Counted from the stretch's first letter, positions 16,919 to 35,374 are shown. The stretch: DNA of 64,000 nt from Pseudomonadota bacterium (GCA_043805555.1 JAZDHW010000172.1:1689-65688); one strand, 5' to 3'. A program made the numbers and translations. Notes: generated by a model from the sequence alone, not told the origin.

Positions 16919-16947
16919 TTGACACAAACCGGCCCGGATGGTTAAAT
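16919..16947 (+). promoter_or_regulatory. Sigma-70-type promoter candidate for metK-ahcY
   Basis: The elements are TTGACA, a 17-nt spacer and TTAAAT. An AT-rich tract lies upstream. The leader to ATG 16982 is about 30 nt and carries a GGAG RBS. Confidence 0.45.
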
Positions 16948-16981
16948 CATCGGTCTCGACTTAATTAAAAGGAGCAACGGC

Positions 16982-19446
<2,465 letters not shown>

Positions 19447-20245: not shown

Positions 20246-20326
20246 GTGGCCGCCGGCCGGGCCCGCCTTGCGCGCTTTCGCCGGCCGCCCGGCCCGCGGT
20301 GTGGTACAAACTATGGCCAGGCGAGC

Positions 20327-21217
20327 ATGACCCGATTGCCAAGCGAGCGGCCCTTGTCAAAATCGAGCCCCAACCAGCCACCGCACCCCCCGCCGCCGGC
20401 CGGCCCCGGCCCCCTGACCCAGGTGAGCACCCTGCAACGGGACGCGGCCGGCCTGCGCGCCGCCGACCAGATGGTCTGCCAAGAGGCGCCGGTGGAGATC
20501 CGGCTCAACGGCCGCTCCCAGGTCATCCTCATGGCCACGCCCATGCAACTGGAGGAGCTGGCCCTGGGCTACTGCGTGAGCGAGGGCGTGGTGCAGGAGG
20601 CGGCCCAGGTGCAGGGGCTCGGCCTGGGCGCGGCCGAGCTGCCCGCGGTGGGCCCGGCCCACTGGGTGGACGTGACCCTGGCGCCGGAGCTGGCCCGCGC
20701 CGCGCGGACCCGGCGGGTGGCCCCGGCCGCCACCTCCTGCGGCCTGTGCGGCCTGGAATCCTTGCAGGAGCTGCCGGACGACCTGACCCCACTGCCCGCG
20801 CCCCGGCCGCTCACGGAGCTGGCCGGCGTGTTCCGCCTGCTGGCCGGCCTGGAGGCGGCGCAGGCCTTGTTCGCCCGCACCGGCGGCGCCCACGCCGCGG
20901 CCCTGGGCAGGGCCGACGGCGCGCTGGTCAGCGTGGCCGAGGACATCGGCCGCCACAACGCCCTGGACAAGGCCCTGGGCATTGCCCATCGGGCGGGCGG
21001 CTGGGACCCGGCCCGGGGCCTGGCCGTCTTGAGCGGGCGCATGAGCTATGAGATGGCCATGAAAATCGCCCGCGCCGGCATCCCGGTGGTGGCCTCGGTC
21101 TCCGCGCCCACCGGCCTGTGCGTGCGCCTGCTGCAGCAGTTGAACATCACCCTGATCGCCTTCTGCCGGCCGCCCCGGGCCACCATCTTCACCCACCCCG
21201 AGCGGATCATAACCTAG
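20327..21217 (+). CDS. fdhD: FdhD-family sulfurtransferase (formate dehydrogenase accessory protein)
   Basis: VEIRLNG, SCGLCG, GGAHAAAL, EDIGRHNALDK and VLSGRMSYEM. The ATG at 20327 lies downstream of the terminator. Confidence 0.8.
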   Translation: MTRLPSERPLSKSSPNQPPHPPPPAGPGPLTQVSTLQRDAAGLRAADQMVCQEAPVEIRLNGRSQVILMATPMQLEELALGYCVSEGVVQEAAQVQGLGLGAAELPAVGPAHWVDVTLAPELARAARTRRVAPAATSCGLCGLESLQELPDDLTPLPAPRPLTELAGVFRLLAGLEAAQALFARTGGAHAAALGRADGALVSVAEDIGRHNALDKALGIAHRAGGWDPARGLAVLSGRMSYEMAMKIARAGIPVVASVSAPTGLCVRLLQQLNITLIAFCRPPRATIFTHPERIIT

Positions 21218-21267
21218 GGCCTGTTAACACTATCCGCCTACTGGCCAGTTAAGACTGGGGGCCGGTA

Positions 21268-21345
21268 GCAGGCTTGAGCCCCCGGCGGTCAAGGGTTGCA
21301 CGAGCTGGCCAGGCCGGCCCTTGTCCGCCGGGGGCTCAAGCCTGC
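21268..21345. terminator. Long hairpin (21-bp perfect arms plus an inner stem) between convergent genes
   Basis: GCAGGCTTGAGCCCCCGGCGG ... CCGCCGGGGGCTCAAGCCTGC, with an inner CAAGGG/CCCTTG stem. Confidence 0.5.
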
Positions 21346-21366
21346 TCTCATTGTATCAACCCGCCC

Positions 21367-22704
21367 CTAGTCCCCCGCCTCCACCTGTATCGAGCGCTTG
21401 GCCACGCCGGTGGTGAACCAGTCCGCCTCGGCCAGGCGCACCGGCTCCAGGCTGAACCCGCCCGCGGCCAGGGCCCGGCGCACCGGAGCCAGGCCGGCCA
21501 GGGCGACGGCCACCGCCGCCCTGCGCCCCGGCGGCGCGCCCGGCGCGGTCAGCACCTCCAGCCCCAGGCGGCGGCCGGTGCAGGCCAGGATCAGGCGGGC
21601 CCGGAAGTTGACCACCCCCGGCACCGCGAAGATAGCCTCGTCCAGTCTGGCCTGGGTCAGGGTGACGCCGCCGCCCAGGTCCACGGTTTTGGCCAGGCGG
21701 CCGTGCAGGCTATTGAGGCGCGGCAGCGCCGAGCCGCAGGCGCAGGGCCTGGTCGACAGCCGGCCCAGGTCGCCGCTCCGGTAGCGGATCAGCGGCATGG
21801 CCTCACGGTTCAGGGTGGTGAAGACCAGCTCGCCGGCCTGGCCCGGCGGCAGGGGCCGGCCGGCCGGGTCGATCACCTCGCAGTAGATGTCGGCCGCGCG
21901 CAGGTGGCAGCCGGCGTGGGCCGCGCACTCCACCGCGCCGCCCAGGCCCAGCTCGGTCATGCCGTAGTGGTTGAAGACCTCCGCGCCCCAGGCCTGGCCC
22001 ACCGCCCGGCGGACGGCCTTGGGCACGTAGTCGGTGGTCAGCAGCGCGCTGCGCACCCGGCCCCGGGGCAGGCCGGCCGCGTCCGGGTGGCGCACCAGGG
22101 CCAGCACCTGGCTGGGGATGCCCACCAGGCAGTCGGCCCCGCTGGCCCTCAGCACGGCCAGGGTGGCGGCCGGGTCGCGCACCGGGCCGTGGGGCAGCGG
22201 CCGCGCGCCCAGGCGGGTGAGGGCCCGGGCCAGCAGGTCGCCCACGCTGTCCGGGGCCTGGCCGGGCAGCAGGATCAGCACCGTGCGCCCCGGCCCGCAC
22301 AGGCTGGCCATGCCGTGGTGGAAAAAATCCAGGGTCAGCTCCAGGTCGGCCGGGCTGAAAAAGAGCCGCTTGGGTTGGGCAGTGGTGCCGGAGCTGTGCA
22401 GGGTCACGATGCGGGCCACCTCGCCCTGGCCGGTGCAGAGCATGCGCTCAGGCTGCTCGCGCAGGTCCTCGGCCGTGGTGAAGGGCAGGCGGGCCAGGTC
22501 GGCCAGGTCGGCGATGGGCTCGGCCGGCAGCCCGGCCAGGCGCTGGCGGTAAAAGGGGCTGCGCTCCCGCGCCCAAGCCACGGTCGCGCGCAGACGCGTG
22601 AGTTGCGCGGCGGCCAGGTGCGAGGGGTGCAGGGGGCCGTCCCCGGCCAGGCCCAGGCGGGTCCGGGTCCAGGCGTCCAGCGGCGTGATGGCCGGCGCGG
22701 TCAT
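21367..22704 (-). CDS. PaaK / coenzyme F390 synthetase-type adenylate-forming ligase
   Basis: TLHSSGTTAQPKRLFFS and the overall PaaK-like layout. ATG 22704 overlaps the upstream stop (ATGA). The N-terminal 91 codons of the track ORF are discarded. Confidence 0.8.
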   Translation of the reverse strand: MTAPAITPLDAWTRTRLGLAGDGPLHPSHLAAAQLTRLRATVAWARERSPFYRQRLAGLPAEPIADLADLARLPFTTAEDLREQPERMLCTGQGEVARIVTLHSSGTTAQPKRLFFSPADLELTLDFFHHGMASLCGPGRTVLILLPGQAPDSVGDLLARALTRLGARPLPHGPVRDPAATLAVLRASGADCLVGIPSQVLALVRHPDAAGLPRGRVRSALLTTDYVPKAVRRAVGQAWGAEVFNHYGMTELGLGGAVECAAHAGCHLRAADIYCEVIDPAGRPLPPGQAGELVFTTLNREAMPLIRYRSGDLGRLSTRPCACGSALPRLNSLHGRLAKTVDLGGGVTLTQARLDEAIFAVPGVVNFRARLILACTGRRLGLEVLTAPGAPPGRRAAVAVALAGLAPVRRALAAGGFSLEPVRLAEADWFTTGVAKRSIQVEAGD

Positions 22705-24074
22705 GGCGCAGCCGGCCGATAGAGGGTCTGGCCCGTGGCGCTGGTCAGGTTGTAGAGGCAAAACGGCACCAGACCGCCGGCCGGGCCCAGCACGTGGATG
22801 CAGCAATCGCGCGCCCGCTCCAGGTCCAGGGTCTGGGCGTCCATGAAGGCCATGGCCGAGATGGAGAAGGCCCGCTGCTGGGCCGTGGCCAGGAAGTCGT
22901 CCAGGCTGGGCGGCGCGCCGGACGCGGCGGGCGGCGGGGCGAGCAGGCTCGCCAGCCCCTGGGGCGGCGCGGACCACTGCCGGGCCTGGCGGGCGATGGT
23001 CTTTTGCGCGCCCTCGGCCGCCGGCCGGGGCGGGGCGCAGCAGTTGCCCGCGCCCGCGCCCAGGGCGCGCAGGCCGCCGCCGGGTTCAATCAGGAAGTTG
23101 CCGCTGAAGGAGCAGCGCGCGTTCTCGCAGCCCGGCGGGCTGAAGTGCTCCGGCCGCACCAGGCCGTCCGTCTGCGCGGCCAGGCCCCGCATCAGCTCAG
23201 GCAGGGTGATGCGTTCGGCTGCTTGCGGCGGATGCGGGTAGCGGCCGAAGTAGGCGATGGGTTGCAGGTGCAGGCCGCGCACCGTGGGAGCCAGGCCGAG
23301 GCCCAGGCGCAAGAGCGCGCCCAGGTCGCCGTCGTTGACGCCGGGCGCCACCGTGGCCACCAGCACCACCCCCAGCCCGGCCGCGGCGCAGGCCTCGATG
23401 GCCGCGAGCTTTGCCCGCAACAGCGGCCGGCCGCGCAAATGGCGATAGACGCCGTCATGGCTGCCGTCAAATTGCAGGAAGACCGAGGCCAGGCCGGCGG
23501 CGGCCAGGCTTTGGGCATAGCCCGGCTCGGAGGCCAGGCGCAGGCCGTTGGTATTGAGCTGGATGAAAGGGTAGCCGACATCGCGGGCCAGGGCGATGAT
23601 CTCGCTTAAGTCCGGGCGCTGGGTGGGCTCGCCGCCGGAGAGCTGGAGGTTACAGGGGCCGGTGGCGGCAAAGGCGCGCCGGAGCCGGCCGGCCAGGTCG
23701 TCCAGGCTGGGGTCCGGCCCGGCCCCGGCCGCGCCGCCGGCGCTGGCGAAGCAGACCGGGCAGCCCAGGTCGCAGGCCTGGGTGACCTCCACCAGGAGAG
23801 TGCAGGTGTGCTGGCGGTGGTCCGGGCACAGGCCGCAGTCATGCGGGCAGCCACGCTCCACGGCGCGCAAGGCCAACGCCGGCGGCGAGGGCAGCTTGGG
23901 CCGGCGCCAGGCATCCCAGTCCGGCGCGCCGCGCCAGACCGGGGCCGCGCTGGGCCCGTGCTCCGGGCAGGTCTTGACCAGCCAAACCTCGTCGCCGCGG
24001 CGCTGGTAGGCCGCCGCCACCCGCGCCAGGCAGACCGGGCACAGGCTGGCCGTGGCCTCGGTTTTTGGGGCCAT
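22701..24074 (-). CDS. Radical SAM enzyme with an N-terminal zinc ribbon
   Basis: CPVCLARV...TCPEHG zinc ribbon followed by CDLGCPVC (CX3CX2C). The ATG at 24074 shares 1 nt with the upstream stop. Confidence 0.8.
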   Translation of the reverse strand: MAPKTEATASLCPVCLARVAAAYQRRGDEVWLVKTCPEHGPSAAPVWRGAPDWDAWRRPKLPSPPALALRAVERGCPHDCGLCPDHRQHTCTLLVEVTQACDLGCPVCFASAGGAAGAGPDPSLDDLAGRLRRAFAATGPCNLQLSGGEPTQRPDLSEIIALARDVGYPFIQLNTNGLRLASEPGYAQSLAAAGLASVFLQFDGSHDGVYRHLRGRPLLRAKLAAIEACAAAGLGVVLVATVAPGVNDGDLGALLRLGLGLAPTVRGLHLQPIAYFGRYPHPPQAAERITLPELMRGLAAQTDGLVRPEHFSPPGCENARCSFSGNFLIEPGGGLRALGAGAGNCCAPPRPAAEGAQKTIARQARQWSAPPQGLASLLAPPPAASGAPPSLDDFLATAQQRAFSISAMAFMDAQTLDLERARDCCIHVLGPAGGLVPFCLYNLTSATGQTLYRPAAP

Positions 24075-24511
24075 CAATACCCGCCGAAACCGTTGGCGGC
24101 CAGGATCTCCACGGCCTTGGCATAGGTCTCGGCCACCAGGGAGCCGCACTTCCGGCGGGCTGCGGCCGGGGTGTCATCGCCCAGGATGGCCTCGCAGGTC
24201 ACGGCCGGGCACTCCGGCCCCAGGCGCTGGGCGAACCAGTCGCCCAGCTCCTGCAACATCATCAGCAGCCGCTCGTCCTCCTGCTCCTCGGCCGCGCCCT
24301 TGCCGGCATGGAGGCCGATCAGGCAGGCCGCGCCCGAGAGCGCACCGCAGGCCCCCCGTCCGCCGCCGCAGCCATAGGCCAGGCCGGCGAGCGCCCGCAC
24401 CAGGCCGGGGTTGTCCTCGCCCCGGGCCTCCAGGCCCAGCAGGATGATGATCTGGCTGCAATGATAGCCCTGGCCGGCCAGTTGCAACAGCCGCAGGTCA
24501 AGCTCGTCCAT
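24074..24511 (-). CDS. C_GCAxxG_C_C family protein
   Basis: The conserved pattern is HC...GACGALSGA...TCEAI...KCGS, in a 145-aa protein. Confidence 0.8.
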   Translation of the reverse strand: MDELDLRLLQLAGQGYHCSQIIILLGLEARGEDNPGLVRALAGLAYGCGGGRGACGALSGAACLIGLHAGKGAAEEQEDERLLMMLQELGDWFAQRLGPECPAVTCEAILGDDTPAAARRKCGSLVAETYAKAVEILAANGFGGY

Positions 24512-24512
24512 G

Positions 24513-25259
24513 CTAGTCCTCCCGGCAACGCGCCAGCAGCAGGTAATAGCCCGGCCGGCTGGGGCGGGGGTCGCAGCCGCCGGTGCAGCCGCCCAGGCCC
24601 ATGCACTCCCAAAGCGCGGCCAGCGAGCCGCAGGCGAAAACCAGGCGCGCGGCCAGTTCCTTGAGCAGGCGGGAGTGGTCCTCCCACACCGTCAGGCGAA
24701 GCCCGGCCGCCGCCACCAGATCCAGCACCTCCCCCCGGCCGCGCGCGCCGGCCAGGCAGGAGCCACCGGCCAGGCCGGGGCCACCGGCCAGGCCGGGGCC
24801 GGCCGGGGCCGGGGCCAGCTCGGGCCGGCGCAGGTAAACGTCACTCAAGACCAGCCAGCCGCCGGGCTTGAGCAGACGGCGGCACTGATCCAGGACCTCG
24901 CCCGGCCGGGCGCAGAGCGAGAGCACGCATTCGCAGAAGACCGCGTCCAGGCTGGCCTCGGCCAGGGGCGGCGCGGCGGCGTCGGCTTGCATGAAGGCCA
25001 GGCCGGGGTGCAGCTGCCGGGCCTGGCGCACCTGCCCGGCCGAGCGATCCAGGCCCAGGGCCGCGAGCCCCTGCCCGGCCAGCCAGGCCGTGCTGGCCCC
25101 CAGGCCGCAGCCCAGGTCCAGCGCCCGCGCGCCGGGGGCCAGGTCGATGAGGGCCCAGGCCCGCCGGGTCAGCTCCAGGCCGCCGGGGCGCAGGGTCTCG
25201 CCCGCGGCCTGGCGCAGCTCCGGGGTCTCATAGAGCGGCGGCCGGGCCGGGAGCCTCAC
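24513..25259 (-). CDS. Class I SAM-dependent methyltransferase
   Basis: Motif I is ALDLGCGLGAS. GTG 25259 overlaps the upstream stop (GTGA). The track start at 25334 would overlap the previous gene by 78 nt. Confidence 0.75.
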   Translation of the reverse strand: MRLPARPPLYETPELRQAAGETLRPGGLELTRRAWALIDLAPGARALDLGCGLGASTAWLAGQGLAALGLDRSAGQVRQARQLHPGLAFMQADAAAPPLAEASLDAVFCECVLSLCARPGEVLDQCRRLLKPGGWLVLSDVYLRRPELAPAPAGPGLAGGPGLAGGSCLAGARGRGEVLDLVAAAGLRLTVWEDHSRLLKELAARLVFACGSLAALWECMGLGGCTGGCDPRPSRPGYYLLLARCRED

Positions 25260-25468
25260 TTGTCCTCCAGGAGCTGCTCCACCTCGGCCATCTTGCCCAG
25301 GGCCAGATCCTCGGGGATGTAGACCAGGCCGCATTGGGGGCAGCGCGGCAGCTCGGTGGTGAACTGGTTGCCCAGGTACTCCAGGGTGACGTTGGCCGCC
25401 ACCATGGCCTCGTCGCAGGCCTGGCAGCGCCAGGCGAAGTCAGCGGGTTTCAGGCTGGGGGCCTTCAT
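25256..25468 (-). CDS. 70-aa four-Cys zinc-ribbon protein
   Basis: CQAC...27 aa...CPQCG. It is translationally coupled at both ends (ATGA upstream, GTGA downstream). Confidence 0.55.
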   Translation of the reverse strand: MKAPSLKPADFAWRCQACDEAMVAANVTLEYLGNQFTTELPRCPQCGLVYIPEDLALGKMAEVEQLLEDK

Positions 25469-27759
25469 AGCCGGCCTCCGCCCACCACGTACATGCGGTG
25501 GCTGTAGGCGTTGAAGACCTCGTAGCCGTCCCCGGCCGGCGCGTACTCCACCCAGAAGGTGGCCTGAAGAGGTCGGTGGGCGGCCAGGCGGTGGCCGGTC
25601 TCCGGGTGCACCCGCGCCTCGCCGCTCCGCTCGGCCTGGGCGATGGCCGCGCGCAGGTCTTCCAGCAGGATGCGGCGCGCCTCCAGGCGCTCGGCCACCT
25701 CCGGGCTCATGCTCAATTTGATGGCCTGGATTTCTGCCACGGCCGCCTCCTCCTCGCCCCAGAGCCGGCGCAGCAGGTCGCGCCTGAGCCGGGAGCGGTT
25801 TTCGCGTCGCATTGACCAGCCCGGCCGGGGCCGGGCGGCCGGGTCGTCAACCCCGGCCGGGGGGAAGACCAGGTCCAGCAGGTGCAGGCAGCGCTTGCCC
25901 GCCCCGGCCAGGCTGTCGCGGCACATGGCGCAATAGGCGATGTAGTCGCCCCCGCCCCGCCCGCCGCGCCGCCGGGCCACCTCGGTGGCCAGGTCCGGGT
26001 TGGCGTTGGCCATCAGGCCGCCGAACCCGCAGCACTCGGTATGCTCGCCGGTCAGCGCCAATTCCGTCAGCCCCACCCCCAGGCGCGCCAGTTGATCGCG
26101 CACCGCCTGGCGCACCGCCGGCAGGTGGCGGCTGGTGCAGGGGTCGTGCAGGGTCAGGGGGCCGGCCGGCGCGGCGGCCAGGTCTTTCAGGTCCAGCGCC
26201 TGCCACAGCGAGACGGTCTCCACCGCGGGCAGGCGCTCGGCGAAAGTCTTCAGGCAGGTGGTGCAGGCGGCGATGATTTGGGGCCGGCCCAGGGACTCCC
26301 ACTGCGCTTGCCACTGGGCGTGGGCCGCGGCCAGGCGGGCCTCTTCGCCCGCCCACAAGGCCGGCGCGCCGCAGCAGCCCAGCATCAGCCCTACGCCGTC
26401 CGCCCGGCCGGACATGAGGCGCTGGTAGACCGCCTCCACCTGGGCCGGGGCCGAGGCCGAGAGCTGGCAGCCGGGGAAGAAGATCGCCGCGCTGGTCTCA
26501 TGGCCGGGCTGGTGCCGGGCCAGGCTGAAGTCCGGGCCCTGGCTGAAGTCCAGGTCCAGCAGGGCGAACTCGTGGGCCGAGGGCGGCATCTTGCCGCGCT
26601 TGACCATGTCGCGCCTGGCCTCCAGGGCGAGGTCCTGCATGGCGAAGTCTTCGGGGCAGACCGCCTGGCACAGGCCGCACAGGCTGCACGAGTTGACCAG
26701 CTTGTTGGCCAGGCGCATGCCCATGACGATGGAGGCGTTGTTGTAGATCTCGCGGGCGTACTTGCGCGGGTAGGAGCCGAAGCGCTCCAGGTAGGCGCAG
26801 ACCTTGACGCACTCCAGGCATTGGCAATTGAGGCAGCGGGCCGCCTCGGCCGAGGCCTCGGCCGCGCCGTAGCCGGCCGGGTTGGCCGGCGCCACGGCCG
26901 ACGAGGGCCCCACCCCGGCCAGGCTGGTGAAGAGCCGGGTGGGCTGGGGGCCTTCCTTCTCGCGGCCCACGGTGAGCGAGACCTTTTGCAGGCGGCGATC
27001 CAGGGAGGCCGCGGCCCAGCGCCCGCGCGCCGTGCGCCACACCGGCGAGGCCTCGACCAGGGCGGCGAAGACCTTATCGGCGCTGGTGGCGCCCAGGGCC
27101 GGGTCCAGCACCAAAGCGCCGTCCGGCCCCGGGGTCAGGGCCAGGCCCGCGCCGGAGCAGGCGGCCAGGTCCACCAGCACCGCGTCGGCCTGCTCCAGGC
27201 CAGCCGCCAGGCAGGCGGGGTCGCCGAGGTCCACACAGGCCACGAAGCTCACCCCGGCCGCGGCCAGGCGGGCGGCCTCGGCGGCGATGACCTCCGGCGT
27301 CAGGGCCGGGAACTCGGCCGTGAGGCCAAAGCCGGGCGTGGGGCCGGCATGGCGCAGGGCCACCGGGTAGCCCTTGCGGGCCAGGTCCCAGGCCGCCGTG
27401 AGGCCGGCCAGGCCGTCGCCCAGCACCGCGACCTTCTGGCTCTTGCGCGGCAGGGGAGACAAACGCAGGCGCGGGACGGGGTGGGCGGTGACCGCCCGCT
27501 CCAAGAGGCCGATGCGGATGGCCTCGCCCGCCTCAGCGCGCTTGCAGCGGGCCTCGCAGGGCGCATCGCAGATGCGGGCCAACAGCCCCGGCAGGGGCAT
27601 GGCCTTCATCAGCACCGCCCAGGCCTGGTCCCAGCGCCCGGCCGCCGCCTGGCCGCACAGGGCGCGGGCGTCCAGGTGCAGCGGGCAGGCTGCCACGCAC
27701 TCCGGTGGCTCTTCCTGGATACAGCGCCGCTCCCACTCGCGCAGCTCGTTTTGTTCCAT
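25465..27759 (-). CDS. Multidomain flavo/Fe-S oxidoreductase: GltD-like N-terminus, 2x[4Fe-4S] ferredoxin, HdrD/GlcF-type CCG domains and a C-terminal extension
   Basis: The motifs are ECVAACP, VAVLGDGLAGL (GxGxxG), CLNCQCLECVKVC, CSLCGLCQAVCP, FFPGCQL, LHDPCTS and ECCGFGG. ATG 27759 was chosen because the upstream track sequence is repeat DNA. Confidence 0.8.
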   Translation of the reverse strand: MEQNELREWERRCIQEEPPECVAACPLHLDARALCGQAAAGRWDQAWAVLMKAMPLPGLLARICDAPCEARCKRAEAGEAIRIGLLERAVTAHPVPRLRLSPLPRKSQKVAVLGDGLAGLTAAWDLARKGYPVALRHAGPTPGFGLTAEFPALTPEVIAAEAARLAAAGVSFVACVDLGDPACLAAGLEQADAVLVDLAACSGAGLALTPGPDGALVLDPALGATSADKVFAALVEASPVWRTARGRWAAASLDRRLQKVSLTVGREKEGPQPTRLFTSLAGVGPSSAVAPANPAGYGAAEASAEAARCLNCQCLECVKVCAYLERFGSYPRKYAREIYNNASIVMGMRLANKLVNSCSLCGLCQAVCPEDFAMQDLALEARRDMVKRGKMPPSAHEFALLDLDFSQGPDFSLARHQPGHETSAAIFFPGCQLSASAPAQVEAVYQRLMSGRADGVGLMLGCCGAPALWAGEEARLAAAHAQWQAQWESLGRPQIIAACTTCLKTFAERLPAVETVSLWQALDLKDLAAAPAGPLTLHDPCTSRHLPAVRQAVRDQLARLGVGLTELALTGEHTECCGFGGLMANANPDLATEVARRRGGRGGGDYIAYCAMCRDSLAGAGKRCLHLLDLVFPPAGVDDPAARPRPGWSMRRENRSRLRRDLLRRLWGEEEAAVAEIQAIKLSMSPEVAERLEARRILLEDLRAAIAQAERSGEARVHPETGHRLAAHRPLQATFWVEYAPAGDGYEVFNAYSHRMYVVGGGRL

Positions 27760-27764
27760 TGTAA

Positions 27765-28080
27765 TACCTCTCGCAAACAAAGCCATCCCTGGCTTTGTTT
27801 GCTCCCCGACCGGGCAAAAGCGCGACTGCACCCCACAAAGCCGAACTTTGTGGGGGCCCACAGTTTTGCCCGGTCGGGCGGGCGCTGTCGCGCCCGGCGG
27901 GCCATCCATGGCCCGCTTTGGGTTGCGCGCGAACCGCGGGTTCAACCGCAACTTAGCGGGCCGGAGGCCAGAGCGGGGCGGCGGGTCTGCCCCGCTCGCC
28001 CCGATCGCGGCCGGAATCCGGTTGTCCGCACCGGCGATGGTTTCAGCATACCATCGCCGGCGCGGGTTTGTCGCGCTGAG
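27765..28080. repeat. Hairpin-packed spacer between mop and the downstream gene
   Basis: At least seven hairpins are present. They include CAAACAAAGCCATCCCTGGCTTTGTTTG, the nested CCGACCGGGCAAAA...TTTTGCCCGGTCGG, GGCGGGCCATCCATGGCCCGC, GAGCGGGGC..GCCCCGCTC and CCGGCGATGGT..ACCATCGCCGG. Confidence 0.7.
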
Positions 28081-28083
28081 CGC

Positions 28084-30801
28084 CTAGCCCTTCAGGCCGG
28101 CCAGGACCTTCTCGGGCAGGGCGGGGAGCTTGGTGATGCGCACCCCGCAGGCGTTGTAGATGGCGTTGATGATGGCGGCGTGGGGGCAGGTGAGCGGCAG
28201 CTCGCCCACGCCGGCCGCGCCAAAGGGACCTTCGGGCCGGGGCTCCTCCACGTAGATCAGCTCCATCTCGTCGGGAATCTGCTTGGCGTAGGGGAAGCCC
28301 GCGCCGCGCAGGGTGGAGTGCTTCTGGATGTCCTCGAAGTCCTCGGTGAGCGCCAGGCCGATGCCCTGGGCCAGGCCGCCATAGAGCTGGCCGTCGGTGA
28401 CCAAGCGGTTGTTCACTTTGCCGATGTCGGCCACCAGGGTCATCTTCTCCACCGCGGTCTGGCCGGTGGCCACTTCCACCGCCACCTGGGCCATGAACAC
28501 GCCGTACATATAGACCGCAAACGGCGCGCCCTGGCCGTTCTCGTCGCAGGCCGTGGCCGGGGCGGTCCACTTGCCGTCGAAGACGGTGGGGATCTTCTCG
28601 GCCACCATCTCGGCGTAGGTGCGGTAGCTGCCGTCGGCCTTGCGCATGGCGGCCAAGAGCAGCTCGCAGGCGGCCTTGATGGCCTGGCCGGTCACCACCT
28701 GGGAGCGGCTGCCGCCGGCCGGGCCGCTGTTGGGGGTCACCGCGGTGTCGTTCATCACCTGGCGGATCTGGTCGGGCTTCAGGCCCAGGGGGCGCAGGCC
28801 CTGGTGGGCGGTGCCCAGCGCGCCGGCGTCGGCCCCCTGGCCGTGGTCCTCCCAGGAGGTGAACAGCGTCACCCCGCCGTCGGGGTCCAGTTGCAGGCGC
28901 GCCTCGGAGCCGTCCGGGCCGTCCAGGCCGCAGCCGTAGACGCCCACCGAGATGCCCACCCCGCGCTTGACCGCGTCGGTGGACTCGGCCTTGGCCTGGG
29001 CCAGGGCCGCCTGGTACTTGGGCCGGATGATGTCCAGCATCTGGGGCAGGGTGTAGACCTCCGGGGCCTGGCCCGAGGGGTTGGTGGCGCCGGGGCGGTA
29101 GACGTTCTTGAAGCGCAGCTCCAGGGGGTCCAGGCCCAGCTTCTCGGCCAGCTCGTCCATCAGCACCTCGGAGGAGAACTCGCTCTGGGGCGAGCCATAG
29201 GCCCGGAAGGCCGAGCCCCAGGCGTGGTTGGTGCAGACGGTGCGGCCCTCGCCGCGGATGGCCGGGATGTCGTAGCCCGCGCCGATGAACTGGGCCCCGC
29301 GCAGGGTCAAGAGGTCGCCGAACTCCGAGTAGGGGCCGTGGTCCACCGACCAGTCGCTCTCCATGGCCAAGAGCTTGCCGTCCTTGTCAGCGGCCAGGCG
29401 CAGGTTGACGAAAAACGGCGAGCGCTTGCCGGTGTAGGTCATCTGCTGGTGGTAGTCATAGTTCAGGAAAACCGGCTGGCCGGTGGCCAGGCAGGCCACG
29501 CCCACCAGGGCCTCCATGGTGGGGCTGAACTTGTAGCCGAAGGTGCCGCCGGCGGGATTCTGCACCATCACCAGCTTGTCCAGCTCCACGCCCAGGCCGG
29601 CGGCGATCATGGCCGCGTGCAGGTGCAGGCCGATGGACTTGGAGTGGATGCACAGCCGGCCCTGGTCGTCGGCGTAGGCGAAACCCACGTCCGGCTCGAT
29701 GGGCATGTGGGGCTGGCGGCCCACGTAGAAGTCGTCCTCCACCACCACCGGCGCGCTGTCAAAGATGGGCGCGGTCTCCGGGCCCTTGGCGATTTTTTGG
29801 ACGAAGTAGACGTTGGGGGTGCCGGGGTGGATCTCCATGGCGTCCTCGGCCATGGCCGCCGGCGCGCTCATGTAGGCCGGCAGCTCCTCCAGCTCCACCT
29901 TGACCTTGGCCGCCGCGGCCTTGGCCTGGGCCAGGGTGTCGGCGCCGACGATGGCGATGGCGTCGCCGTACTGATAGACCTTCTCGTCGCAGAGGATGGG
30001 CCGGTCCCAGCCGTCGCCCTTGTTGGTGGGGAAGGTGATCAGGCCGGTGATGCGGTTCTTGCCCTTGACGTCCTGGTGGGTGACCACCTTGGCCACGCCG
30101 GGCATCTTCTCGGCCTCGGCGGTGTCAATGCCCTTGATCAGCGCGTGGCTGACCGTGGCCTGCACCAGGGCGCAATGCAGGGTGTTCTCGGGCAGCTTCA
30201 GGCCCAGGTCCGCGCCATAGTCCAACGTGCCGGTGACCTTGCCCACCGCGGTGGGCCGGGGGTGCTTGCCGCCCCATATCACGCCGTCGGCCGGAAGCTT
30301 GTACATCAGCTCCTCGGCCTTCATCTCCCCGCGCATGACCTTGGCCGCGTCCATGACCGCGTCCACCAGGGGCTTGTAGCCGGTGCAGCGGCAGGCGTTG
30401 CGGTGCACCTGGAACCAGTCGCGCACCTGGTCCCGGCTGGGGTTGGGGTTCTCGGCCAGAAGCGCCTTGGACGAGACGATGAAGCCGGGGCTGCAGAAGC
30501 CGCACTGGGCGCCGCCGTGGAGGATCCAGGCCAGTTGCAGGGGGTGCAGGTTGTCCGGCTGGCCCACGCCCTCGATGGTGATGACGCTGGCCCCGTCGGC
30601 CACCTTGCCCAGCTTGGTCACGCAGGAGCGCACCAGCTTGTCGTCCAGGATCACGTTGCACGCCGCGCACTGGCCCTGGCCGCAGCCGATCTTGACGCCG
30701 GTCAGGCCGAACTGCTGGCGCAGCACGTTGGCCAGCGACTCCTCGGCCGGCGCGATGACCGTGCGGGTTATACCATTGATTTTAAGTGATTTCTTGATCA
30801 T
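28084..30801 (-). CDS. mop: Aldehyde oxidoreductase, Mo-pterin + 2x[2Fe-2S] (xanthine oxidase family, MOP type)
   Basis: 905 aa. The N-terminus MIKKSLKINGI...GCGQGQCAACNV...RNACRCTGY carries the two 2Fe-2S motifs. Length and N-terminus resemble Desulfovibrio gigas MOP as I recall it. Confidence 0.9.
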   Translation of the reverse strand: MIKKSLKINGITRTVIAPAEESLANVLRQQFGLTGVKIGCGQGQCAACNVILDDKLVRSCVTKLGKVADGASVITIEGVGQPDNLHPLQLAWILHGGAQCGFCSPGFIVSSKALLAENPNPSRDQVRDWFQVHRNACRCTGYKPLVDAVMDAAKVMRGEMKAEELMYKLPADGVIWGGKHPRPTAVGKVTGTLDYGADLGLKLPENTLHCALVQATVSHALIKGIDTAEAEKMPGVAKVVTHQDVKGKNRITGLITFPTNKGDGWDRPILCDEKVYQYGDAIAIVGADTLAQAKAAAAKVKVELEELPAYMSAPAAMAEDAMEIHPGTPNVYFVQKIAKGPETAPIFDSAPVVVEDDFYVGRQPHMPIEPDVGFAYADDQGRLCIHSKSIGLHLHAAMIAAGLGVELDKLVMVQNPAGGTFGYKFSPTMEALVGVACLATGQPVFLNYDYHQQMTYTGKRSPFFVNLRLAADKDGKLLAMESDWSVDHGPYSEFGDLLTLRGAQFIGAGYDIPAIRGEGRTVCTNHAWGSAFRAYGSPQSEFSSEVLMDELAEKLGLDPLELRFKNVYRPGATNPSGQAPEVYTLPQMLDIIRPKYQAALAQAKAESTDAVKRGVGISVGVYGCGLDGPDGSEARLQLDPDGGVTLFTSWEDHGQGADAGALGTAHQGLRPLGLKPDQIRQVMNDTAVTPNSGPAGGSRSQVVTGQAIKAACELLLAAMRKADGSYRTYAEMVAEKIPTVFDGKWTAPATACDENGQGAPFAVYMYGVFMAQVAVEVATGQTAVEKMTLVADIGKVNNRLVTDGQLYGGLAQGIGLALTEDFEDIQKHSTLRGAGFPYAKQIPDEMELIYVEEPRPEGPFGAAGVGELPLTCPHAAIINAIYNACGVRITKLPALPEKVLAGLKG

Positions 30802-31043
30802 GAAAGCCTCCTGGCAGCGGTTGGGCGATTACTGGCCTGTCAAACGGCGGGGTGGTTACTTGCGCCCTGCCCGGCGGTTATGCGGGGTGTGGTGAAGACT
30901 TTCCTGCGCAGGACGTTAATTTCAATATGCCAAAAGCGCCTGCCGCTTGCAACTTGATTTTACTGAGTTTTCAATTGCTTATGTGTTTAATAGTGTTATT
31001 TTAAGCATGTTTGTGCAATTGAGCCGCCGCGCATGGCGAAACC

Positions 31044-31060
31044 ATTGCCCATTGGGCAAT
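31044..31060. repeat. 17-bp perfect palindrome ATTGCCCATTGGGCAAT (copy 1)
   Basis: An identical copy lies at 32718-32734. Confidence 0.9.
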
Positions 31061-31249
31061 GTGCGCAAACGTAGCGTATACCCAGATGGCCACTGTTTAC
31101 TTAGGCCAACGACATTTCGTGATGCTTATGAAGATTCGCAGGAATGCAGGTGCTGCGAGCAGTTTTTGCCTTATATTGGTCTGTAATACATCATTGGCTG
31201 GAGCAAACTATTTGAAACTATCGAATCATTGTTAATGAGTAAGTATGCA

Positions 31250-32602
31250 TTATTCAAACGGTCTTCCGAAATAGGTTAGTACAGCGAGAGCAACGAGGTA
31301 CAAGCTAATTACCGATTGTATGCCGGATACCAAGCGAACCCAACCTGTCGCACGTAATAAATACTCGCGTGGTTGCATGTGGCTCATCCAGGTGCCTACA
31401 TTTAAGTCACGCCATCCAAATCGGAACGCGGAGAGTACAGAAAAATAAAATGAATAAGCTAGCTTATATTTCCATGTTAATGATTTAATTGATTCTGGTG
31501 TGTCAGTCCCTTCATCAAGCCGTATCCGGTCAGGCTGCCAACTGCGCCATATACATCCACCACCTTTCACGTACAATGAGACTAGATATATTAATGCGAA
31601 CGGGATAATTAAATACAATAGATATAGTACTGGCTGGATTGGATACAGCCCCCAACCACAAGTAACCCCAAAAAGTAGTTGTGGGATAAAATTGAGTACA
31701 TCATTGTCTTTAATTATTTCATTACTTTTTATTGCATACGTTAATTCCCGTTCTGATTGTCTCAGCCCATAGGCTATAAATGTATTCCGTAAACCCGCAA
31801 GACCTACAGGAGAGTGGTTATATGTTAACTTATCTAAGTTTTGCGCAGTAGAAATAAATAATGGTGAAGGCAAGGCTTTAGGATCTATATCGAATACCAC
31901 TCCATCCATATTAGCCATAGCAAAACTGGCACCGGTTAAATCGGAATCATAAAATTGAGTATTCTGCAACCTACAGTTATAGAAATTTGCATTCACCAAT
32001 TTTGCTTGTGTGAATACTGCCCCATTACAGTCAGCTTCGCAAAAGTTTGCCCTTGAGGCATCTAATGCAATAAACTTTGTATTTCTCAAATCGGCCTTAT
32101 ATAGCTTTGCGCCTACCATGCTCGCATATTCTAAATTTGCACCTTCTAAGTGAATACCTTCCATGTCTGCATCACAAAACTTCGCCAATCTTAAATCGCG
32201 CAATCTCAGATCAGCACCCCTCAAGTTGGCACCAGAAAAATCAGCCCTTTTTATCTTGTAAGCCTTATTGAACGACTCCTGATCCATTTTTTGAATGATT
32301 AGATTCAAATAACGTCTGGTCTTTGGTCCGCTCGAATACGCTGTCCATACCTCCTTTACCCATGCCTCGTGCGAAGCAATTATGCGATTCAAATCCGTTT
32401 CAGATATGGCTGAACCATCTATTAAGAGTCCCTGCCATTCTGATTTGTGTTTTTGCCCTACAACTTCGCCTGCATTACTCGGGCAGGTACCCAATACGGT
32501 GAATATTGTCACTACTATTAAAAATATTAAGTTCGTTACCGCCGGCATACTTTTCACCTCAATGATCACTATGGCTCCAACCTTCTGGCTCGGGATACCC
32601 AA
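31250..32602 (-). CDS. Pentapeptide-repeat protein with an N-terminal signal/TM segment and a C-terminal membrane domain
   Basis: It has a long run of A(D/N)LxG-type pentapeptides (ADFSGANLRGADLRLRDLRLAKF...) and C-terminal hydrophobic helices. The gene is strikingly AT-rich. The start is 32602 or 32548. Confidence 0.8.
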   Translation of the reverse strand: MGIPSQKVGAIVIIEVKSMPAVTNLIFLIVVTIFTVLGTCPSNAGEVVGQKHKSEWQGLLIDGSAISETDLNRIIASHEAWVKEVWTAYSSGPKTRRYLNLIIQKMDQESFNKAYKIKRADFSGANLRGADLRLRDLRLAKFCDADMEGIHLEGANLEYASMVGAKLYKADLRNTKFIALDASRANFCEADCNGAVFTQAKLVNANFYNCRLQNTQFYDSDLTGASFAMANMDGVVFDIDPKALPSPLFISTAQNLDKLTYNHSPVGLAGLRNTFIAYGLRQSERELTYAIKSNEIIKDNDVLNFIPQLLFGVTCGWGLYPIQPVLYLLYLIIPFALIYLVSLYVKGGGCIWRSWQPDRIRLDEGTDTPESIKSLTWKYKLAYSFYFSVLSAFRFGWRDLNVGTWMSHMQPREYLLRATGWVRLVSGIQSVISLYLVALAVLTYFGRPFE

Positions 32603-32717
32603 GCTAGCAACAGGCTGTGCCTAAAATTACCATCTTCCAGCCATATTTTGTCAATCGAAAAATCATTTCCAGTTAATGTGTCCGATTTCATGACTACTCC
32701 TCGAAATAGCCTCCCCT

Positions 32718-32734
32718 ATTGCCCATTGGGCAAT
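32718..32734. repeat. 17-bp perfect palindrome ATTGCCCATTGGGCAAT (copy 2)
   Basis: Identical to 31044-31060. Confidence 0.9.
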
Positions 32735-32840
32735 CCGCGTGGGCCGCGCTTGTGCAACCCCGCCTCGTTCCGCTCCGCCCGCGCGCCCGCCATCGCACAA
32801 AATCCGTCCCGCCAAATCGCGCCGCCCCGCCGGAGCGGGC

Positions 32841-32869
32841 TTGACGAACCCGTCCGGCCGTCTTATTAT
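32841..32869 (+). promoter_or_regulatory. Near-consensus sigma-70 promoter of the first DUF134 gene
   Basis: TTGACG, a 17-nt spacer, then TATTAT. Confidence 0.6.
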
Positions 32870-32883
32870 GAACCTAGGTTCAT
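32868..32883. promoter_or_regulatory. 16-bp perfect palindrome overlapping the -10/+1 region (operator candidate)
   Basis: ATGAACCTAGGTTCAT. Confidence 0.5.
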
Positions 32884-32900
32884 AACGAAAGGATCAACCC

Positions 32901-33311
32901 ATGCCCCGCCCCCGCCTTTGCCGCCTGGTGGCCGACACCCCGCCCGTGGACTACTACAAGCCACGCGGGGTGCCCCTGGCCCAGTTGCGCGAGGTGGTCC
33001 TGCCCCTGGAGGGCCTGGAGGCCCTGCGTTTGGTGGAGGTGGAGGGGCTGGACCAGGAGGCGGCCGCGGCGCGCATGGGCGTGTCGCGGCCCACCTTCAC
33101 CCGGGTGCTGGCCGAGGCCCGCCACCTGGTGGCCGTGGCGCTGACCCAGGGCCAGGCCCTGCGCATCGCCGGCGGCGACTACCGCCTGGCCGAGGCCCCG
33201 GCCGGCCAGCCCGACGCCCCCTGCCTGGGGCGTATGGGTCATGGCCGGGGCGGGTTCGGCGGCGGCGGCCACGGGCGCGGACGCGGGCGGGGCCGGGATT
33301 GGCCGGCATGA
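32901..33311 (+). CDS. DUF134 (UPF0251) family putative DNA-binding protein with a Gly/Arg-rich tail
   Basis: The sequence contains MPRPRLCR...YYKPRG..., EALRLVEVEGLDQEAAAARMGVSRPTF and the tail GHGRGGFGGGGHGRGRGRGRD. Confidence 0.8.
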   Translation: MPRPRLCRLVADTPPVDYYKPRGVPLAQLREVVLPLEGLEALRLVEVEGLDQEAAAARMGVSRPTFTRVLAEARHLVAVALTQGQALRIAGGDYRLAEAPAGQPDAPCLGRMGHGRGGFGGGGHGRGRGRGRDWPA

Positions 33312-33341
33312 ACCAGAGCCACCCTAACCAAGGAGGATGAA

Positions 33342-33626
33342 ATGCCTATGCGTGATGGCAGCGGACCCTGGGGCAACGGCCGCCAGGGGCGCGGATTGGG
33401 ACCCTGCGGCGGCGGCCTGGGCGGTCGCGGCGGGGCCGGCCGGGGCGGCGCACGCGGCGCCGGCTTCGGCTTCATCGGCGGCGGCCGCTGGGCGGCCGGG
33501 CCGGTGGCCGGCGGCGCGGAATCGGCCCAGTTGAGCGACCTGGCCCGCCAGGTGGATCAACTGCAGTCCGAGATCAAGGCCCTGCGCCAGAGCCCGTCCA
33601 GCGCCCCGGCCAAGATCGAGGACTAG
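33342..33626 (+). CDS. DUF5320-like protein (Gly/Arg-rich N-terminus, coiled-coil C-terminus)
   Basis: The sequence contains MPMRDGSGPWGNGRQGRGLGPCGGG... and LARQVDQLQSEIKALRQ. A strong RBS (AAGGAGGA) lies upstream. Confidence 0.65.
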   Translation: MPMRDGSGPWGNGRQGRGLGPCGGGLGGRGGAGRGGARGAGFGFIGGGRWAAGPVAGGAESAQLSDLARQVDQLQSEIKALRQSPSSAPAKIED

Positions 33627-33711
33627 GAACCCGAACCACAACCCGATGATGCTCCGGAGCGGGGGCCTGGACGGGCAGGCCCCCGCCGCAAAAAAGACCA
33701 TGATATCCCTA

Positions 33712-33739
33712 TTGACAGCACCGGTTTTGGGATTATATT
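33712..33739 (+). promoter_or_regulatory. Sigma-70 promoter candidate of the second DUF134 unit
   Basis: TTGACA, a 16-nt spacer, then TATATT. Confidence 0.55.
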
Positions 33740-33780
33740 AGTTTTGAGCCTACGCCCATAACATAGCCCAAAGGTAGACG

Positions 33781-34461
33781 ATGCCCCGACCGCGCAAATG
33801 CCGCCTGGTTTCCGCCCGGCCCCTGGTCAACTACTTCAAGCCCCGGGGCATCCCCATGCACGACCTGCAGGAGGTGCGCCTGAGCCTGGAAGGCCACGAG
33901 GCCCTGCGCCTGGCCGACCTGGACGGACTCTGCCGCGACGAGGCCGCGGCGCGCATGGGCGTGTCGCGCCAGACCTTCAGCCGGGTGCTGGTCGAGGCCC
34001 GGCGGGCGGTGGCCGAGGCGGTGGTGGGCGGGCGGGCGCTTTACATCGAGGGCGGGGCCTACCGCCTGCCGGACCAGGCCGCCCCGCCCCAGGACAAGGA
34101 GACAGCCATGAGCAAGATCGCCATCAGCAGCGAGGGCCCCCGCCTGGACGACCTGGTGGACCCGCGTTTCGGCCGCAGCGGCGGCTTTATCATCGTGGAC
34201 ACCCAGAACATGGAGACCACCTACCTGGACAACGGCGCGGCCCAGGCCCGCGGCCAGGGGGCCGGCATCCAGGCCGCCGAGCTGGTGGCCGGGGCCGGGG
34301 CCACGGTGGTGCTCACCGGTTTCGTGGGCCCCAAGGCCTTCGCCGCCCTCCAGGCGGCCGGCGTGGGCGTGGGCCAGGACCTGGGCGGAGTCAGCGTGCG
34401 CGAGGCCGTGCAGCGCTACCTGGACGGCCGGGTGCCCCTGGCCGCCAACCCCAACCGTTAA
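33781..34461 (+). CDS. DUF134 domain fused to a NifX/NifB-C-type (dinitrogenase FeMo-cofactor biosynthesis-like) domain
   Basis: The N-terminus MPRPRKCR...FKPRG...MGVSRQTF is paralogous to 32901-33311. The C-terminus is KIAISSEG...DPRFGRSGGFIIVD...VVLTGFVGPKA. Confidence 0.8.
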   Translation: MPRPRKCRLVSARPLVNYFKPRGIPMHDLQEVRLSLEGHEALRLADLDGLCRDEAAARMGVSRQTFSRVLVEARRAVAEAVVGGRALYIEGGAYRLPDQAAPPQDKETAMSKIAISSEGPRLDDLVDPRFGRSGGFIIVDTQNMETTYLDNGAAQARGQGAGIQAAELVAGAGATVVLTGFVGPKAFAALQAAGVGVGQDLGGVSVREAVQRYLDGRVPLAANPNR

Positions 34462-34510
34462 ACAACCCGGCCCGGCCGCCCCGCTTGGCCGGGCCCCCCG
34501 CAACCCGGAG

Positions 34511-35371: not shown

Positions 35372-35374
35372 GCC

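Follow-up and report, generated by a model that had tools for sequence, protein, structure and literature searches.

The 64,000-nt stretch of Pseudomonadota bacterium DNA analysed here (GCA_043805555.1, JAZDHW010000172.1:1689-65688; hereafter the window) carries seven minus-strand genes at 21367-30801, in which mop, the gene of a molybdopterin-dependent aldehyde oxidoreductase (MOP), is followed by a cassette of six genes that includes the radical S-adenosylmethionine (SAM) enzyme TrsS. The mop gene (28084..30801) encodes a 905-aa protein with two [2Fe-2S] clusters and two molybdenum-cofactor-binding domains, without a flavin domain. The first cassette gene, here called ‘big’ (25465..27759, ATG at 27759), encodes 764 aa that combine a GltD/NfnB-like part with two [4Fe-4S] clusters, one Rossmann motif of the flavin adenine dinucleotide (FAD) type, a ferredoxin dicluster, two CCG domains (HdrB/HdrD-type), and a C-terminal docking domain (CTD; residues ~676-760, 25480..25734, motif VTYWVEY...AYSHRM), the putative partner of the Zn-ribbon protein. 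The latter is a 70-aa DVU_1557-family Zn-ribbon (or rubredoxin-like) protein (25256..25468) with a conserved C-terminal helix ending in LEDK-COOH. The remaining genes encode a 248-aa DVU_1556-family class I SAM methyltransferase (24513..25259; GTG start at 25259), a 145-aa DVU_1555-family C_GCAxxG_C_C protein (24074..24511; conserved C18, C55, C106, and C122), the 457-aa TrsS (22701..24074), which has the GDGT-MAS fold and is of the Cys form (Cys316), and a 445-aa DVU_1553-family PaaK/F390-type adenylate-forming ligase (21367..22704; HSSGTTAQPKR, C-terminal K436). When the open reading frames were re-read, the coordinates, lengths, and motifs of all seven genes were as a first-pass annotation of this DNA had given them, including the CX3CX2C motif (C101/C105/C108) and N-terminal CxxC...CPEHG of TrsS, the HSSGTTAQPKR motif of the ligase, and the four Cys of the 70-aa protein.

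The six cassette genes are tightly packed, and their five junctions also read as annotated: overlaps at ATGA (25465-25468), GTGA (25256-25259), TGATG (24072-24076), and ATGA (22701-22704), and a 1-nt gap at 24512. GGAGG-type Shine-Dalgarno sequences lie ahead of the mop start and of the big/Zn-ribbon, Zn-ribbon/methyltransferase, and methyltransferase/C_GCAxxG_C_C junctions, and the ribosome-binding site of ‘big’ is GAGAGG, ahead of its ATG; none was evident at the last two junctions (C_GCAxxG_C_C/TrsS and TrsS/ligase) in the short stretches inspected. At the Zn-ribbon/methyltransferase overlap, the LEDK codons CTG GAG GAC AAG (25256-25270) double in this genome as the GGAGGA ribosome-binding site of the methyltransferase gene. 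The spacer between mop and ‘big’ is 324 nt (27760..28083), at the long end of the range in related loci (median ~113 nt, range 1-716, n = 110), in none of which the two genes overlap; coupling to mop itself is thus looser than among the six genes. It holds a run of long perfect hairpins (28031-28060, 27831-27855, and 27774-27801), with a minimum free energy of -217.6 kcal/mol calculated without a shuffled-sequence control. No T-tract terminator was seen in the spacer, and neither the spacer nor the region upstream of mop gave an Rfam riboswitch match; the spacer could set how strongly mop is expressed relative to the cassette, either by attenuation or as an mRNA-stability element. At the other end, the 149-nt region between the ligase and the convergent fdhD gene (minimum free energy -88 kcal/mol) contains, between the two stop codons, a perfect 22-bp inverted repeat (21267..21346), probably the bidirectional end of both transcripts.

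Pfam and NCBIfam hidden Markov model searches, which the first-pass annotation had called for, upheld every one of its family assignments, and all seven products exceed the cut-offs of curated NCBIfam equivalogs: MOP matches NF045668 (1688 bits; cut-off 1100); ‘big’ NF045663, ‘pyridine nucleotide-disulfide oxidoreductase/dicluster-binding protein’ (967; 530); the 70-aa protein NF045645, ‘DVU_1557 family redox protein’ (101.9; 60), as well as PF24292; the methyltransferase NF045667, ‘DVU_1556 family methyltransferase’ (237.6; 155), as well as Methyltransf_11/25; the C_GCAxxG_C_C protein NF045669, ‘DVU_1555 family C-GCAxxG-C-C protein’ (164.5; 103), as well as PF09719; the radical SAM enzyme NF045646, ‘radical SAM (seleno)protein TrsS’ (615.2; 490; residues 7-453 over model positions 2-441); and the ligase NF045666, ‘DVU_1553 family AMP-dependent CoA ligase’ (458.5; 300). 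The Pfam domains of MOP are only Fer2, Fer2_2, Ald_Xan_dh_C, and MoCoBD_1/2, in a single chain without an FAD domain. The DVU_1553, DVU_1555, DVU_1556, and DVU_1557 names of these models bear out the statement in the first-pass annotation that the gene order has its equivalent at DVU1553-DVU1559 of Desulfovibrio vulgaris Hildenborough, where DVU_1559 is the 97-kDa aldehyde oxidoreductase. Since the products pass equivalogs named after these D. vulgaris genes (NF045663-NF045669, NF045645, and NF045646), the gene set is already catalogued. The window has the same seven families in the same order on one strand, and on sequence grounds its genes are this genome’s copy of a widespread, catalogued, functionally uncharacterised gene set of anaerobes. 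The literature searched gives no function for any of the six cassette genes, as the first reading had supposed. TrsS appears as a selenoprotein family in a table of a 2026 review that cites Haft & Tolstoy 2025 (PMC13188914).

A scan with a TrsS alignment, with one genome per species, gave at least 599 matching stretches, and a TrsS relative is encoded in at least 597 of these species-genome stretches (597 of 599 matches). The best 80 loci, which were analysed further, come from at least six phyla (Desulfobacterota, Chloroflexota, Bacillota, Nitrospirota, Acidobacteriota, Campylobacterota, and others); a second set, anchored on mop, comprised 80 metagenome contigs with mop identities of 68-82 %. 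The one-strand order mop, ‘big’, Zn-ribbon, methyltransferase, C_GCAxxG_C_C, TrsS, and ligase repeats in most of the 80 genomes and 80 contigs, a gene arrangement far beyond chance. Genes of the DVU_1553, DVU_1555, DVU_1556, and DVU_1557 families are present in 73-76 of the 80 TrsS loci; the window has all of them, contiguous and on the same strand. Among TrsS loci with at least 7 kb upstream (n = 63), MOP is colinear in 50, nearby in 4, and missing in 9. Seen from the other side, ‘big’ directly follows mop in 56 of the 59 mop-anchored metagenome loci with enough flank, and where at least 9.5 kb downstream is available (n = 36), all six genes are present in 26 loci and none in 3. The cassette is tied to mop in both directions (50/63 and 56/59), rather than occurring as often without mop as with it, an outcome that the first-pass annotation had named as fatal to its hypothesis.

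The gene fdhD (20246-21217, plus strand; PF02634), which encodes a bona fide FdhD/NarQ protein, does lie convergent and just downstream of the ligase, as had been described; its membership in the system was rejected, for fdhD is absent from all related loci (0/160), and its adjacency in the window is thus coincidental. Other cofactor genes do recur. An XdhC-type gene (NF045664, ‘XdhC family aldehyde oxidoreductase maturation factor’) follows the ligase in 54 of the 80 TrsS loci, in certain loci (the L001 type) with a MobA-like (MocA-type) NTP-transferase/HD gene next after it, and a MoeA-like molybdopterin-binding gene lies ahead of mop in 30 of the 80. Read by gene order, mop, the six genes, and xdhC/mocA-type genes would elsewhere follow the usual structural-then-maturation order, which is compatible with the six genes being functional partners or further maturation factors. 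No XdhC, MocA, MoeA-like, or AOR genes were found elsewhere in the window. Compared with the DVU_1553-1559 type, therefore, the window lacks the XdhC-type, MocA-like, and MoeA-like genes, and represents a trimmed version, with TrsS in the Cys form.

Loci that hold only parts of the set indicate how it may be divided. In seven of the nine TrsS loci without MOP, just the last ~85 residues of ‘big’ persist, either as a small gene of its own that immediately precedes the Zn-ribbon gene (L030, L038, and L051) or as an in-frame fusion to the Zn-ribbon protein (L028, L040, L052, and L073). Locus L015 has neither a CTD of ‘big’ nor a Zn-ribbon gene. The neighbours in the MOP-less loci are AOR-family tungsten/molybdenum aldehyde:ferredoxin oxidoreductases with ferredoxin, molybdopterin enzymes of the dimethyl sulfoxide (DMSO)-reductase family, none of which passes any NCBIfam cut-off, and MoeA genes. 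One such enzyme, in L030 (5443-7911), is an 822-aa chimera of an XDH/PaoA-type [2Fe-2S] N-terminus and a DMSO-reductase-family catalytic domain, whose gene immediately precedes those of the stand-alone CTD and the Zn-ribbon protein; the chimera likewise passes no NCBIfam cut-off. Judging from these neighbours, MOP appears to be swapped for AOR- or DMSO-reductase-family enzymes beside the Trs core in other genomes. In an alphaproteobacterial metagenome-assembled genome (MAG; L052, 2275-16773), the Trs core lies amid AOR, ferredoxin, a StyD-like NAD-type aldehyde dehydrogenase, and indolepyruvate:ferredoxin oxidoreductase, together with a true PaaK and a second DVU_1553-like ligase, which would place it in an aromatic amino-acid/arylacetaldehyde context. 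Conversely, trios of mop, ‘big’, and Zn-ribbon stand alone in L097 and L102, and sets of mop, ‘big’, Zn-ribbon, C_GCAxxG_C_C, and ligase occur in L106 and L110. The MOP-less remnants and fusions, the trios, and the loss in L015 together make the pair of CTD and Zn-ribbon the element common to a ‘MOP side’ and a ‘TrsS side’. An apparent fusion of the Zn-ribbon and C_GCAxxG_C_C proteins in L106 proved to be an out-of-frame extension of the open reading frame. Separately, in a Desulfosporosinus MAG (L062, 9920-12145), a radical SAM protein like TrsS is joined to DUF5714, and no other cassette genes lie nearby; this DUF5714 domain shows no similarity to the C_GCAxxG_C_C protein.

The Pfam matches of ‘big’ are Fer4_20, Fer4_17 (308-372), and CCG in two stretches (best 427-506), with a GlcF-like NCBIfam match at 528-597; its Rossmann motif gives DAO/GIDA N-terminal matches below the Pfam gathering cut-offs, and its PDB matches are confined to residues 6-207 and to Fe-S flavoproteins of the NfnB/GltD type. 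The CCG-type Cys are conserved among orthologs. In the Zn-ribbon orthologs (n = 75), C15, C18, C43, C46, and the C-terminal helix are kept, and 74 of 75 end exactly in LEDK. Twenty-five different 12-mers encode these four residues, and use of the three stop codons is even (25/25/24); conservation of LEDK as a by-product of the downstream Shine-Dalgarno sequence was ruled out by this synonymous-codon diversity, and the constraint thus acts on the protein. A word-indexed search with the 70-aa protein retrieved only 70-aa proteins; fused forms surfaced in an exhaustive search of 1.84 billion representatives, which gave 240 relatives. Among the best 150 of these 240, the Zn-ribbon of fused forms is always at the extreme C-terminus, in fusions of ‘big’ and Zn-ribbon (770-915 aa), of CCG, CTD, and Zn-ribbon (~450 aa), or of CTD and Zn-ribbon (~140-230 aa), and the fusion sequences retrieved end in (L/M)EDK.

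A confident AlphaFold2 (AF2) model of a natural CTD-Zn-ribbon fusion (pLDDT 84.9, pTM 0.79) gave no significant PDB match by Foldseek; across the CTD, the matches of high probability were RelE/HigB/ParE toxins (probability 0.8-0.93, TM 0.5-0.57, E > 0.04). DUF4258 (PF14076) matched weakly in 7 of 22 CTD sequences (best E 0.0066), short of the family’s gathering score; a PDB profile search with the CTD alignment returned chance-level matches only; and the Zn-ribbon reached 17.6 bits (E 0.0035) against YgiT_finger (TIGR03831), under the 20.2-bit threshold. These matches are suggestive of a RelE-like CTD paired with the Zn-ribbon protein, possibly an exapted toxin-antitoxin-like docking pair. In type II toxin-antitoxin systems (RelE/DUF4258 plus YgiT/MqsA), to each part of which the adjacent or fused CTD and Zn-ribbon give weak matches, the corresponding proteins differ from the cassette pair, which is sub-threshold in all scores, lies in a redox operon, is fused to an oxidoreductase, and has no helix-turn-helix domain. 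A further parallel to ‘big’ is with HdrD/HdrB-type CCG proteins and the DsrK-DsrC pair: ‘big’ likewise has a ferredoxin dicluster followed by two CCG domains, and DsrC, like DVU_1557, is a small Cys-containing partner with a conserved exact C-terminus. Relative to these, ‘big’ has two additional parts, a GltD/NfnB-like Fe-S/FAD module at the N-terminus and a RelE-like domain for docking, and the LEDK tail has no Cys.

TrsS is closest to GDGT-MAS (PDB 7TOL) both in sequence (E 2.5e-74) and in fold; its AF2 model (pLDDT 84, pTM 0.88) matches 7TOL by Foldseek with E 2.4e-39 and TM 0.77, far ahead of MoaA. Metal sites were mapped via the 7TOL chain offset and the ligands named in the structure paper (PMC9433317). 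By this mapping, C12/C15/C36/H39 of TrsS correspond to the rubredoxin-type iron (C-X2-C-X20-C-X2-H), C76/C80/C83/H86 to [4Fe-4S]N (C73/C77/C80 plus His in GDGT-MAS; C-X3-C-X2-C plus His), C101/C105/C108 to the radical SAM cluster (CX3CX2C), and M408 to the labile Met439 of [4Fe-4S]C, and all mapped ligands are invariant in 81 of 81 TrsS orthologs. GDGT-MAS parks the first substrate radical as a carbon-sulfur adduct on the C-terminal cluster, and sets free a sulfur-containing lipid when SAM is limiting (PMC9433317). Its Tyr459, 4.2 Å from the substrate carbon, is strictly conserved in 1000 archaeal homologs (PMC9433317); the equivalent in the window is Val428, and among the 81 orthologs it is V65/I6/T6/other, never Tyr. 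TrsS also scores 282.5 bits against the Tes model NF045702, under the 450 cut-off. As to the hydrophobic pocket for two lipids, which amphipathic helices form in GDGT-MAS, residues 313-395 of TrsS do not align to 7TOL, are Pro/Gly/Ala-rich in the window, and carry C316, C321, and C345/346 (low AF2 confidence at 375-384). The metal sites being kept while Tyr459 is lost, the Tes cut-off is missed, and residues 313-395 diverge, TrsS would work with GDGT-MAS-like machinery on a non-lipid substrate, and not as a tetraether synthase. Relative to GDGT-MAS/Tes (7TOL/7TOM; PMC9433317), TrsS thus shares the four-domain fold and four metal sites, and differs in the Val/Ile/Thr at the Tyr459 position, in the unaligned Cys/Sec (selenocysteine)-bearing stretch, and in its redox-enzyme context.

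Within the unaligned stretch, column 316 (motif PPGCENxxCSF) is Cys in 61 of 81 orthologs and Gly/Ala in ~15, so that the residue is not a universal metal ligand. An in-frame TGA at this column, a selenocysteine candidate, occurs in a Desulfobacterium MAG (L079), the only one in the 80 TrsS loci; no aligned in-frame TGA was found in the ‘big’, methyltransferase, or C_GCAxxG_C_C genes of related loci. The proposal that such Zn-ribbon radical SAM enzymes include pterin C-methylases fell away, because it rested on MJ0619, once regarded as a pterin methylase and since shown to be the tetraether synthase GDGT-MAS (PMC9433317); with this reassignment, the main chemical argument for pterin methylation is gone. 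The Pfam name ‘HMPTM zinc ribbon’ stems from the superseded MJ0619 assignment.

The ligase has its best PDB matches (E ~1e-30) among AjiA1, PaaK, and NatL2-like ligases, keeps its C-terminal Lys (K436), and scores 121 and 153 bits against the PaaK models TIGR02155 and NF041878, far under their cut-offs of 646 and 700. The methyltransferase lies under the cut-offs for BioC, ArsM (46 bits against PRK11873; cut-off 263), and UbiE, as expected of a generic class I enzyme. No solved relative of the C_GCAxxG_C_C protein appeared in a PDB sequence search.

On this evidence, we tentatively favour, at slightly less than even confidence, the reading that the cassette works together with the aldehyde oxidoreductase as its functional partner and is not a pterin-tailoring kit. 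The first-pass annotation had set out both alternatives, a pathway module with an electron sink and the tailoring of a pterin cofactor; the former fits better, owing to the pairing of ‘big’ with the Zn-ribbon, the lone trios, and the swapping of MOP, and the latter has lost its precedent. We know of no xanthine-oxidase-family enzyme other than MOP that has no flavin domain. In the proposed path, of which the electron route, the hub, and all substrates are inferred, MOP would oxidise an aldehyde, and electrons of very low potential would pass from its two [2Fe-2S] clusters into ‘big’, which would supply an Fe-S/FAD route ending at the HdrD-like CCG site. The RelE-like CTD of ‘big’ would hold the Zn-ribbon protein DVU_1557 as a hub between the MOP side and the TrsS side, whether it carries electrons in rubredoxin-like/thiol fashion or serves as a carrier arm. 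This hub may then serve a four-protein module of TrsS, the C_GCAxxG_C_C protein, the methyltransferase, and the ligase, which would work on a carboxylate-bearing, non-lipid substrate. TrsS, whose predicted cofactors are a rubredoxin-type iron, the radical SAM cluster, and a pair of auxiliary [4Fe-4S] clusters, of which one has a labile Met ligand, would functionalise an unactivated C-H via a cluster-sulfur adduct to form a C-C or C-S/Se bond on a non-lipid substrate; the C_GCAxxG_C_C protein may support redox or cluster chemistry, the methyltransferase would methylate, and the PaaK-type ligase would adenylate a carboxylate, possibly the acid made by MOP.

Several points weigh against a partner system of this kind. 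The structured 324-nt spacer means that the layout does not in itself imply co-transcription of mop and the cassette in this genome, and the literature searched yielded neither expression nor fitness data for DVU1553-1558; in it, the D. vulgaris randomly barcoded transposon-sequencing paper treats, among aldehyde oxidoreductases, the tungsten AOR DVU1179 only. The scores behind a RelE-like CTD are weak (Foldseek E > 0.04; Pfam E ≥ 0.0066), and the metal assignment of the Zn-ribbon (or rubredoxin-like) protein is putative. A dedicated aldehyde oxidoreductase as the reductant of one radical SAM enzyme would be extravagant, and the sole common denominator of the MOP, AOR, and DMSO-reductase neighbours and the MoeA/XdhC/MocA genes is the pyranopterin cofactor, which suits maturation equally. 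The Trs core might in that case act on MOP, and in other genomes on enzymes of the AOR and DMSO-reductase families, by modifying the Mo/W cofactor or the apo-enzyme or by helping with its insertion or repair. We regard such a role in maturation or tailoring of pyranopterin enzymes as unlikely; what keeps it alive is that all of the alternative neighbours are pterin enzymes with MoeA, XdhC, or MocA genes at their flanks. The core invariably has a pterin enzyme next to it, from one or another of three unrelated families, with MoeA, XdhC-type, and MocA-like genes around it, and TrsS also resembles MoaA in its radical SAM core. Against it stand the reassignment of MJ0619 to lipid C-C coupling; the high-resolution structures of D. 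gigas MOP, which reportedly contain ordinary molybdopterin cytosine dinucleotide and no modified residues; the 764-aa flavo/Fe-S/CCG oxidoreductase and the stoichiometric translational coupling, both unusual for maturases; the mop-big-Zn-ribbon trios without TrsS, methyltransferase, or ligase; and L052, where the core also sits with a pterin-free NAD-type aldehyde dehydrogenase. The carrier-arm variant of the hub deserves separate consideration, in which DVU_1557 would be a LysW- or lipoyl-domain-like carrier, and thereby a new protein-borne swinging arm: the ligase would load an acid on (and so acylate) its C-terminal Lys (Lys70), TrsS would create a thiol/selenol or cross-linked group by LipA-like sulfur insertion or C-C coupling, the methyltransferase would cap it, and the CCG domains of ‘big’ would redox-cycle the arm between thiol and disulfide with electrons from MOP. 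The parts of the cassette are formally parallel to the lipoyl system and LysW, in that there is an adenylating ligase, a radical SAM enzyme with a sacrificial or adduct-forming auxiliary cluster, a small candidate carrier with a critical Lys/C-terminus, and a disulfide-type reductase; the lipoyl system itself comprises the LplA ligase, the LipA radical SAM enzyme, a lipoyl-lysine arm, and the E3 reductase. LEDK-COOH is invariant under protein-level selection and its domain always C-terminal in fusions, a Zn-ribbon followed by an acidic tail is an architecture like that of LysW, heterodisulfide reductases have CCG domains as their catalytic part, GDGT-MAS passes through substrate-S(cluster) adducts and sets free the sulfur-containing lipid noted above, and the nearest solved relatives of the ligase include the non-PaaK PaaK-like AjiA1 and 6SIW, which presumably form ester/amide bonds rather than CoA thioesters. 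The tail, however, is predicted in the AF2 model to be helical and not a floppy arm, trios without ligase or TrsS exist, the modified form of DVU_1557 is hypothetical, and a terminal Lys with an ANL ligase is without precedent as a carrier system. Nor are the components related in sequence to LplA, LipA, lipoyl domains, or LysX, and DVU_1557 is a putative carrier. LysW ends in Glu and uses an ATP-grasp ligase (LysX/ArgX), whereas the Zn-ribbon protein ends in Lys (LEDK, in the 74 of 75 orthologs), and no ATP-grasp gene is among the conserved neighbours of the 80 TrsS loci. We consider the swinging arm quite improbable; if true, it would be a previously unknown lipoyl-like cofactor system and would give MOP its physiological acceptor.

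Less probable again, to our mind, is a catabolic side-branch, in which MOP would oxidise a specific (aryl or branched) aldehyde, the ligase would make the acyl-CoA, TrsS and the methyltransferase would act further, and ‘big’ would be the respiratory outlet. The ligase is of the PaaK family, and in L052 the core lies among indolepyruvate:ferredoxin oxidoreductase, a bona fide PaaK, the StyD-like aldehyde dehydrogenase, and AOR, a setting typical of anaerobic aromatic amino-acid degradation. Such a branch leaves the invariant Zn-ribbon/CTD hub, the C_GCAxxG_C_C protein, and the DMSO-reductase-family neighbours unexplained, and no transporter, thiolase, or beta-oxidation genes are conserved near the 80 TrsS loci. 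That TrsS is a true Tes orthologue coupling lipid tails as a membrane-spanning-lipid synthase is very improbable indeed. It is a close homolog of GDGT-MAS, and bacterial Tes homologs have been proposed as synthases of branched glycerol dialkyl glycerol tetraethers (brGDGT; PMC8941075); the Tes score (282 vs 450), the position of Tyr459, never Tyr in the 81 orthologs, the Cys-bearing, Pro/Gly/Ala-rich, unaligned 313-395 stretch, and neighbours that are soluble redox proteins, not lipid genes, all oppose it.

The partner-system reading bears on MOP itself, the first xanthine-oxidase-family enzyme with a solved structure, whose physiological substrate and electron acceptor in sulfate reducers remain, to our knowledge, unclear. 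The cassette is a near-constant genomic companion of MOP in Desulfobacterota, Chloroflexota, Bacillota, Nitrospirota, and other anaerobes, and should ‘big’ and the Zn-ribbon protein form the missing acceptor chain, this long-standing question becomes directly testable in the genetically tractable D. vulgaris. As TrsS would be a bacterial branch of the tetraether-synthase fold that acts on a non-lipid, its sequences would be false positives for those who use Tes homologs as markers of brGDGT producers. The CTD-Zn-ribbon hub, the free LEDK terminus, the swapping among three families of pterin enzymes, and the GDGT-MAS sites with a changed substrate region were not found described in the literature searched. 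The window itself is one more, slightly trimmed copy of the catalogued, uncharacterised system, and it is the system, not this copy of it, that is of interest.

Directly upstream of mop, the region 30802-32900 has ~52 % G+C, against ~70 % elsewhere in the window, and on its minus strand, at 31250-32602, encodes a pentapeptide-repeat protein of 450 aa whose C-terminal half is hydrophobic; the region has the appearance of foreign DNA inserted between mop and the genes that once lay upstream of it. Beyond this region lies a plus-strand cluster (32898-36265), which encodes a pair of DUF134 proteins (one of them with a fused NifX/NifB-type ‘dinitrogenase FeMo-cofactor’ domain), a P-loop ATPase of the Mrp/NBP35 type, and a ParA-like ATPase that contains a 2x[4Fe-4S] insert; we take the cluster to be reminiscent of the orange-protein (orp) gene clusters of Desulfovibrio. 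On the far side of fdhD, panC, panD, metK (SAM synthetase), and ahcY (S-adenosylhomocysteine hydrolase) were assigned by eye from translations at 15249-19446; the proximity of SAM-cycle genes to a radical SAM/methyltransferase operon is probably coincidence, since the 80 related loci have no conserved neighbour cluster there. The sole matches in the window at the Rfam gathering threshold are tRNA genes at 43050-43123 and 46285-46359.

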